The position numbers and the translations under genes are program-made. From assembly GCF_003334785.1 (NCBI RefSeq), contig NZ_QOWV01000001.1: a DNA stretch of 64,000 nucleotides; one strand, 5' to 3'. The notes under the pieces were generated by a model that saw nothing but the letters and a program-made list of their open reading frames with translations, was not told the origin of the DNA and made no database searches. Of this stretch, positions 18,765-44,189 are shown one piece after another. Source of the DNA: Escherichia coli (GTDB taxonomy: Bacteria; Pseudomonadota; Gammaproteobacteria; Enterobacterales; Enterobacteriaceae). The stretch's first letter is position 1, and each line of letters opens with the position of its first letter.

Positions 18765-18863
<99 letters not shown>

Positions 18864-24017: not shown

Positions 24018-24137
24018 GGACGTAGCGTAAACGCCTGATCCGTCCAACGGTTCGGATTTTGTAGGCCTGATAAGACGCGGTAGCGTCGCATCAGGCATCT
24101 GTTGCCGGATGCGGCGTAAACGCCTTATCCGTCCTAC
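24018..24137. repeat. REP/BIME cluster between hcxB and ybiJ
   Basis: Three REP-like units including gtaggcctgataagacgcggtagcgtcgcatcaggc and gccggatgcggcgtaaacgccttatccgtcctac. Confidence 0.8.
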
Positions 24138-34654: not shown

Positions 34655-34810
34655 TAAAATTGTGCACTCAACACAGTGATTATTTAGCGTAAAACCTGAT
34701 GAAAAAACAATCTTTATGTAACGATTGTGTGATGATGTGGATACAAAAAATTTACTTAATCAGCTGGAGATAGCAGATGGATGCACTAAATAAGTGCGTT
34801 GAGGTGGGCT

Positions 34811-34842
34811 GCAAAACAAAACGGCCTCCTGTCAGGAAGCCG
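34811..34842 (-). terminator. Putative dps terminator
   Basis: Imperfect hairpin cggcctcctg-t-caggaagccg, followed on the minus strand by a T-rich tract. Confidence 0.5.
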
Positions 34843-34883
34843 CTTTTATCGGGTACTAAAGTTCTGCACCATCAGCGATGGAT

Positions 34884-35531
<648 letters not shown>

Positions 35532-35647
35532 TTAGATATATTGATAAGAACAATTCTTATTTATCTGCTCGCCAGGAATTTTCGGAATAAATATGCTTTT
35601 GCATAATTCGATATATAAAGACGGTGTAGAGGAAAAGTAGCGAGAAA

Positions 35648-35677
35648 TTCTGCATGGTTATGCATAACCATGCAGAA
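35648..35677. terminator. 30-bp perfect palindrome just downstream of rhtA stop (probable rhtA terminator hairpin)
   Basis: ttctgcatggttatgcataaccatgcagaa is self-complementary over its whole length. Confidence 0.5.
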
Positions 35678-35685
35678 ATGTAAAT

Positions 35686-36573
35686 TTAATTAATGTCTAA
35701 TTCTTTTATTTTGCTCTCTTTGCGTACTGTCAGCGTAGACCCCATTGAAGCGGCGATGATAGCGCCGAGCGCCAGTAGCTGTATGGGTGTCAGTGTTTCT
35801 CCGAGGAAAATCATCCCGGAAACGGCAGCCAGCGCCGGTTCCATGCTCATCAGCGTACCAAATGTCCGTGTTGGCAAACGGGTGAGGGCAATCATTTCCA
35901 GCGAATAAGGCAGAGCGGTCGAGAGAATAGCGACAGCCAGACCCAATGGAATAACCGACCAGTGCCAGAGTGCTTCACCAGCCTGAAGCGCTCCAATTGG
36001 CACGAAAATTAACGCTGCAATCAACGAACCAATTGCCACCGTCGCAGGGCCATGTTCCGCTCCTGCGCGTTGCCCACTTAAAATGTAAATAGCCCAACAA
36101 GCCCCGGCCCCCAGTGCCAGCGCACAGCCGGTTAAATCGACATGGGAAACGTCTTGCCCCAGCGGTAGCAGGAACCACAGACCAAGAACCGCCAGCACAA
36201 CCCAGACGAAATCTACCGGGCGACGAGAAGAGAACAGCGCCACCGCCAGTGGTCCGGTGAACTCCAGCGCCACCGCAATACCCAGCGGTACTGTCTGAAT
36301 AGAAAGATAAAAAAGATAATTCATCCCACCCAGCGAAACGCCGTAAAACAACAGCGGTAACCGTTGCTCTTTGGCAAAGCGCAGTCGCCATGGCTTAAAG
36401 AACGCGATGAGGATCAGCGTTCCTAATGCCAGACGCAGCGCAGTGACACCCGGTGCGCCCACCAGAGGAAAAAGTGACTTAGCTAACGAGGCTCCACCCT
36501 GAATAGACGCCATGGCAACGAGCAATATGACTATTGGTAACCAGACCGGCATTTTACGTAATGAACCAGGCAT
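35686..36573 (-). CDS. rhtA: RhtA, threonine/homoserine exporter, DMT superfamily (295 aa)
   Basis: ORF 35686..36585 minus; start at ATG 36573 (MPGSLRKMPV); about 10 TM segments. Confidence 0.93.
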   Translation of the reverse strand: MPGSLRKMPVWLPIVILLVAMASIQGGASLAKSLFPLVGAPGVTALRLALGTLILIAFFKPWRLRFAKEQRLPLLFYGVSLGGMNYLFYLSIQTVPLGIAVALEFTGPLAVALFSSRRPVDFVWVVLAVLGLWFLLPLGQDVSHVDLTGCALALGAGACWAIYILSGQRAGAEHGPATVAIGSLIAALIFVPIGALQAGEALWHWSVIPLGLAVAILSTALPYSLEMIALTRLPTRTFGTLMSMEPALAAVSGMIFLGETLTPIQLLALGAIIAASMGSTLTVRKESKIKELDIN

Positions 36574-44091: not shown

Positions 44092-44189
44092 GCCTGATGC
44101 GCTACGCTTATCAGGCCTACGCAGTACCTGCAATATATTGAATCTGCAGGACTTTGTAGGCCGGATAAGGCGTTAACGCCGCATCAGGC
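44092..44189. repeat. REP/BIME cluster between convergent ybiT and ybiU
   Basis: Same two REP units and caatatattgaat linker as at 2061-2158 and 18765-18863. Confidence 0.85.

Follow-up and report, generated by a model that had tools for sequence, protein, structure and literature searches.

Rho-dependent gene ends, as described by Dar and Sorek (2018; PMC6061677), carry a stable stem-loop without a U-tract or a 5′ A-tract and are followed by a sequence with more C than G; they propose that exonucleases shorten the RNA up to a protective hairpin, and they note that such ends can be transition states. The rhtA end of E. coli, which we analyzed within a 64-kb stretch of genomic DNA (64,000 nucleotides, hereafter the window), is similar to these ends in that a stable stem-loop is closely followed by a precise steady-state 3′ end, and in that it is U-poor, has no 5′ A-tract, and is followed by C in excess over G. 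It differs from them in the K-12 tail, which starts with UUU, and may be an intermediate or a weak intrinsic case; it also differs in that the action of Rho and of trimming on rhtA is something we infer, and Adams et al. (2021) list no Rho region for it.

The other close relatives are intrinsic terminators and REP elements. The terminator of the neighboring dps gene (∼34810-34845, about 800 bp away) has a hairpin of similar energy, which likewise stands directly after a stop codon, and the RNA end 7 nt past the stem of rhtA is that of canonical intrinsic terminators. Unlike the dps terminator, rhtA has only a short U-tract (UUUCUCGC), which is absent at most of the orthologous loci, and unlike a canonical terminator the base of its stem is A/U-rich (UU…AA) with no pairing of an A-tract with a U-tract. 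REP elements are, like the rhtA palindrome, intergenic, and both kinds of element can stabilize the upstream mRNA; the rhtA palindrome, however, is single-copy, is of unrelated sequence, and has no match to REP-derived families in Rfam.

The palindrome between rhtA and dps

The window covers the glnH-dps-rhtA-ompX region of E. coli, in which rhtA and dps are both on the minus strand (gene identities were taken from the RefSeq annotation of the identical K-12 record). The 30-bp perfect palindrome reported in the earlier note is real, as TTCTGCATGGTTATGCATAACCATGCAGAA at positions 35648-35677 is perfectly self-complementary with 15-nt arms and a spacer of 0. Its genome coordinates are 849172-849201, using the offset window = genome − 813524 obtained from the published rhtA CDS (849210-850097). 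The palindrome lies past the end of the rhtA CDS (threonine/homoserine exporter; 35686..36573, minus strand), as had been described, although the gap between the TAA stop codon (35686..35688, minus strand) and the 5′ arm is 8 nt (35678-35685) and not 9 nt. The described distance of ∼260 bp to the start of dps agrees with our count of 261 nt from the near edge to the ATG at 35387 (dps CDS 34884-35387, minus strand). With the dps TSS at ∼35426 (848950 on the minus strand in the SMRT-Cappable-seq table, b0812), the center of the palindrome is at about −237, and the rhtA 3′ end comes ∼215-250 nt ahead of that TSS.

This is the sole perfect palindrome of at least 14 bp in the window. In 100 dinucleotide-preserving shuffles of the window, the longest palindrome was 24 bp, usually 14-16 bp, and none reached 30 bp. 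Across the whole window, spacer-less perfect palindromes are rarer than in dinucleotide shuffles, with 201 observed vs. 302 ± 18 of at least 8 bp, 7 vs. 19.8 ± 4.8 of at least 12 bp, and 1 vs. 5.1 of at least 14 bp. Palindrome avoidance is known in E. coli, and the depletion in the window is consistent with it.

The locus is single per genome in 5421 of the 5426 complete E. coli genomes (the ‘two places’ found per genome are both strands of one palindrome), and no further copy was found in the window with up to 3 mismatches allowed. Identity with REP or another repeated element was rejected on the grounds of this single locus per genome (5421 genomes) and of the missing second copy. The exact K-12 60-mer is present in ∼75% of complete E. 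coli genomes. A T-to-A variant at 35648, linked to an A-to-T change at 35692 within rhtA, occurs in 1167 of the 5421 complete genomes (21.5%); it removes the outermost pair, shrinking the perfect palindrome to 28 bp, and changes the RNA tail to UUUUCUCG, in which the U run is lengthened to UUUU.

In Rfam, the palindrome itself matched no family at threshold, its sub-threshold matches to miRNA models being attributable to chance, and the whole-window scan at the gathering threshold gave no match at the palindrome. Elsewhere in the window, the same scan recovered a Moco riboswitch and the REP-derived naRNA4 and ES036 elements [3388-3532 (+); 24064-24134 (−); 2082-2123, 18786-18828, and 44113-44155 (−)]. 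A 9-codon ORF (ATGGTTATGCATAACCATGCAGAAATGTAA; plus strand, 35654-35683) in the palindrome was dismissed, as the stem is not conserved as a coding sequence in other genera. The literature on rhtA/ybiF yielded only the divergent rhtA-ompX promoter (e.g., sigma-E, RamA, and RpoD SELEX), which is irrelevant to the palindrome site.

Conservation and strand of the stem-loop

In the rhtA-sense RNA, the palindrome (35648..35677, minus strand) forms a stem-loop in the rhtA 3′ UTR, with a 13-bp stem (UUCUGCAUGGUUA/UAACCAUGCAGAA), a 4-nt loop UGCA, and a folding energy of −18.7 kcal/mol (z = −4.85); it was recognized from the palindrome search, from RNA and DNA folding, and from covariation. We compared 80 rhtA loci, taken from one genome per species ranging from Escherichia to Pantoea, which together with the K-12 record makes 81 loci. 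In 79 of the 81, dps is downstream of rhtA with an intergenic gap of ∼265-410 nt (mostly ∼300 nt), and in most of these 79 syntenic loci the hairpin starts 8-16 nt past the rhtA stop codon. A hairpin at the same position after rhtA is present in about 70 species of Enterobacteriaceae with differing stem sequences (e.g., CUGCAUGG, CAGCAUGAG, UACCGUGG, and UUGCCGG). The stem is UUCUGCAUGG in Escherichia, Citrobacter, Salmonella, and Enterobacter, UUCAGCAUGAG in Kosakonia, UUUACCGUGG in Buttiauxella, and UUUUGCCGG in Leclercia, while other genera carry further versions.

The pairing is kept through these differences. Compensatory changes were found at 14 of the 15 pairs of the hairpin over about 70 species, and RNAalifold predicted 11 pairs from 73 sequences, every one of them (11/11) with compensatory double substitutions. 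For the 15-pair helix, 87% of the cells are paired vs. 31-45% after a shift of the 3′ partner by 1-3 columns, and the covariation score is 0.517 vs. at most 0.118 for the shifted partner; none of the 500 shuffles reached the observed values of pairing or covariation. The length of the loop is not conserved, ranging from 0 to 8 nt across species. Perfect symmetry without a spacer is found only in Escherichia, and the Citrobacter form is one base away from it (GGTTATGCATAACC vs. GGTT-TGCATAACC): the Escherichia-specific base turns the 5-nt loop of Citrobacter into an extra A-U pair and the self-complementary loop UGCA. The symmetry is therefore an incidental feature of the lineage and not a conserved property.

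These observations weigh on the suggestion of the earlier note that the palindrome is the site of a dimeric protein, i.e., a DNA operator at which a symmetric dimer acts on dps or rhtA. The two-fold symmetry is perfect over 30 bp, is invariant within E. coli, and stands upstream of a heavily regulated promoter, all of which speak for an operator. The arms, however, change between genera with their complementarity kept, so that no half-site is conserved beyond close genera, the variable loop implies a variable spacing, the symmetry is confined to Escherichia and hangs on the one base that separates it from Citrobacter, and the substitutions are biased by strand toward G·U. Moreover, a center ∼237 bp upstream of the dps TSS is beyond what we take to be the region of the known OxyR, IHF, Fis, and MntR sites. 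We consider an operator very unlikely, and the suggestion of a dimeric protein site is not supported by the comparison, given the covarying arms, the unconserved half-site and spacing, and the symmetry specific to Escherichia. A full-text literature search for the palindrome sequence returned no paper.

The strand on which the pairing is selected can be approached through wobble pairs, as selection on RNA tolerates G·U on its own strand, which is A·C on the other, and a DNA palindrome predicts no such bias. Over the core stem (columns 20-29 of the alignment, without two misaligned sequences), the rhtA-sense strand has 38 G·U/U·G cells vs. 7 A·C/C·A cells. Counting near-identical sequences once per genus, with a lineage grouping that is rough and made by eye, the bias is ∼20 vs. 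7 (one-sided binomial ∼0.01). Folding energies of the whole 70 nt, compared between sense and antisense, point in the same direction (47 vs. 28, Wilcoxon p = 0.055); they are too noisy for a strand call, and the count of wobble types in the stem was used for that reason. The bias toward the rhtA-sense RNA, as read from the alignment, is supportive rather than decisive.

In E. coli, the palindrome folds identically on both strands, and an earlier report places a weak, promoter-like distal site (‘P3’) in the rhtA-dps spacer, which together leave room for a hairpin acting on the plus strand to stop or stabilize an antisense transcript that comes from the region upstream of dps and enters rhtA. 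We regard such a role as extremely improbable: the wobble pairs favor the rhtA-sense strand, the plus-strand tail AUGUAAAUUUAAUU enters the rhtA coding sequence, and the tables of Adams et al. (2021) and Bar et al. (2023) that were searched hold no plus-strand 3′ end here.

The same symmetry could also extrude as a cruciform bound by nucleoid proteins (Dps, HU) and so shape the region upstream of dps, as each strand of the palindrome folds as single-stranded DNA (−13.3 kcal/mol, z = −6.9). A length of 30 bp is short for cruciform extrusion in vivo, and, since both strands of a cruciform must pair, no bias of G·U over A·C would be expected from it. The Ozoline group reports a preference of Dps for branched DNA and its binding to the region upstream of dps (PMC4433220, PMC5553809), which is in favor of a cruciform; in the work of the same group, however, the palindrome is cut in two by the primer dps_F2, with better Dps binding by the half that lacks it, and the Dps-protected bands lie beside the palindrome (∼35617-35641 and ∼35703). 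A bound cruciform, too, is extremely unlikely in our estimate.

Several other features were noticed in the spacer on the dps side. A minus-strand block, GCATATTTATTCC (35584-35595), located ∼160-170 nt upstream of the dps TSS, shows a strong conservation across genera that does not extend to its surroundings, and is abutted by a small inverted repeat, TATGC-N4-GCATA (35593-35606), which has TTATGCA in common with the center of the palindrome; the block at 35584-35606 may be a candidate upstream regulatory site of dps. Nearly invariant in ∼70 enterobacterial species are a CTAT-N7-ATAG block resembling an OxyR site (35474-35490) and the core promoter and 5′ UTR of dps (35388-35460). One E. coli genome (NZ_AP027759.1, locus 3223-3920; ∼35556 in the window) has an IS1 insertion in the spacer, which sits between the hairpin and the dps promoter such that the hairpin remains with rhtA.

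Beyond the stem, the 3′ flank A-A-U-A (columns 53-57 of alignment A2) is nearly invariant, being present in 64-70 of the 73 species, and it is kept even where its 5′ pairing partner is not. Conceivably, the hairpin and the AAUA flank could form a family-wide 3′-UTR module read by a specific factor (an RNase, ProQ, Hfq, or a termination factor), setting the lifetime of the rhtA mRNA or insulating the dps promoter, which we consider unlikely. In Mangrovibacter, a canonical terminator at ∼45 and 31 nt past the rhtA stop codon (L067 and L070, respectively) replaces the U-poor hairpin, its GC-rich stem leading into a T-run (AGCCCGTTCAAACGGGCTTTTCTTC; AAATAACCCGTTCACCCGGGTTATTTTTT); the type of terminator thus seems to have switched within the family.

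The mapped 3′ end and the mode of termination

A 3′ end of rhtA at the hairpin is found in published data. In the LB RNAtag-seq sheet of their Supplementary Data 3, Bar et al. (2023; PMC10687069) give rhtA a ‘Primary’ 3′ terminus with a peak at 849163-849170 (35639..35646 in the window, minus strand) and a dominant position at 849165, which is 35641 in the window and 7 nt beyond the final paired base; the entry displays the identical hairpin fold (the register of its sequence columns was fixed against the dps and thrL entries). The adjusted p values in the three LB libraries are 0, 0.19, and 0.003, i.e., significant in two of the three, and the read density of rhtA in the table is low. The curated Term-seq set of Adams et al. 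(2021) has no 3′ end at 8489xx-8492xx, and its Supplementary file 2 has no bicyclomycin-sensitive Rho region in the same interval; this absence is weak evidence because rhtA is weakly expressed. The TERMITe supplements contain no rhtA entry. By SMRT-Cappable-seq, rhtA (b0813) is a single-gene unit with its TSS at 850130, and dps (b0812) has its own TSS at 848950.

The earlier note had read the palindrome most simply as a hairpin closing the rhtA transcript, to be checked by RNA 3′-end mapping. The reading is borne out by the covariation of the stem, the G·U bias to the rhtA-sense strand, and the terminus 7 nt downstream; the mapping is split, with the end at 35641 present in Bar et al. (2023) and none at the locus in Adams et al. 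(2021). The palindrome is thus the DNA image of an ordinary rhtA 3′-UTR stem-loop and not a special protein site on DNA. That an RNA hairpin defines the 3′ end of rhtA, be it by protection and Rho or by an intrinsic route, is highly probable.

The choice between the two routes turns on the tail (35588..35647, minus strand; UUUCUCGCUACUUUUCCUCUACACCGUC…), which was examined by tail score and base composition. The K-12 tail UUUCUCGC (longer, UUUCUCGCUACUUUUCC) has 4 U in its first 8 nt and a T-score of 2.99 vs. 4.31 for the dps terminator. Over 71 orthologous loci the means are 3.4 U in 8 nt and a T-score of 1.77, and in other genera UAUUCC or UAUC usually stands after the conserved hairpin. The 60 nt past the hairpin have 23% C and 8% G in K-12, which is rut-like, and means of 22% C and 11% G across genera. 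A hairpin conserved without a U-tract in most genera is indicative that selection across genera has preserved the hairpin and not the U-tract.

Features of both classes of gene end are present. In line with intrinsic terminators, a stable stem-loop containing G+C follows the gene immediately, 8 nt past the stop codon, and the RNA end falls 7 nt past the stem in the one dataset that has it, within the 7-9 nt expected of this class. Measured against the U-rich stretch of 7-8 nt that intrinsic terminators carry directly 3′ of the stem, the K-12 tail is borderline. In line with the Rho class, the stem-loop precedes the 3′ end without a U-tract or an A-tract, most clearly outside Escherichia (K-12 is borderline due to its proximal UUU), and the downstream sequence is C-rich and G-poor.

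On balance, our preferred mechanism, to which we give about an even chance, is a protective hairpin with Rho-dependent termination downstream. It is favored because the family has conserved the hairpin and not the U-tract, and because here, as in most other genera, the tail is low in U and G and rich in C, which makes the U-poor kind of gene end the preferred one. In this mechanism, the ribosome would leave the stop codon 8 nt upstream, after which the transcript would fold the 13-bp hairpin; RNA polymerase would mostly run slightly past the hairpin into the spacer and be stopped there by Rho; in E. coli, the hairpin might add a minor share of termination at the UUUCU tail. Subsequently, 3′-5′ exonucleases would trim the RNA back to the hairpin, which would protect the rhtA message, with the net result that rhtA would have a defined 3′ end and that few transcripts would read through into the dps promoter, which is regulated separately.

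Several observations hold against this mechanism. An intrinsic terminator would just as readily yield an end 7 nt beyond a stem whose tail begins with UUU, the sole positive call of the 3′ end comes from one dataset in which two of three libraries are significant, Adams et al. (2021) record no 3′ end and no Rho region here, and the count of strand bias depends on a by-eye grouping of related sequences. Next in our ranking, and a serious if tentative possibility, is that the E. coli hairpin is a self-sufficient, weak intrinsic terminator, in which the hairpin and UUUCU release the polymerase 7-8 nt past the stem without Rho. The stability of the hairpin (−18.7 kcal/mol), the three stem-proximal U positions of the tail, a mapped end at the classic release distance, the 21.5% of E. 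coli genomes that extend the run to UUUU, the lack of a listed Rho region in Adams et al. (2021), and the status of rhtA as a single-gene unit all fit such a terminator. It is countered by the low U content (4 in 8 nt) and T-score relative to the dps terminator and by the absence of a 5′ A-tract. A consensus promoter/terminator scan, which requires 5 T in 8 nt, did not list the rhtA hairpin, and most other genera have UAUUCC or UAUC after an equally conserved hairpin, with a mean T-score of 1.77.

The stem-loop in the biology of rhtA and dps

The earlier proposal of a barrier insulating the dps promoter from rhtA read-through would, as we infer, be the same function viewed from the side of dps, and it fits the separate transcription units of the two genes. 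The terminus and fold of rhtA are already in a published table and are thus known at the catalogue level; our literature search found no study dissecting the rhtA hairpin and nothing on rhtA, dps, and the palindrome together. The element behaves like the 3′ stem-loops that end most E. coli genes, which is ordinary biology, and what is gained is a defined 3′ end of rhtA, together with a conserved RNA hairpin that probably keeps its transcription unit apart from that of dps, and little beyond annotation. In practical terms, constructs for over-expression of rhtA (e.g., for threonine production) or fragments of the dps promoter should keep or remove the palindrome whole, a caution that applies to the published dps primer dps_F2, by which the palindrome is halved.

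For the family, the rhtA hairpin adds a well-documented case in which covariation shows a 3′ stem-loop lacking a U-tract to be conserved across Enterobacteriaceae. This agrees with the idea that selection keeps hairpins of this kind mainly to protect the 3′ end, and with the idea that gene ends can drift between the Rho-dependent and the intrinsic types.
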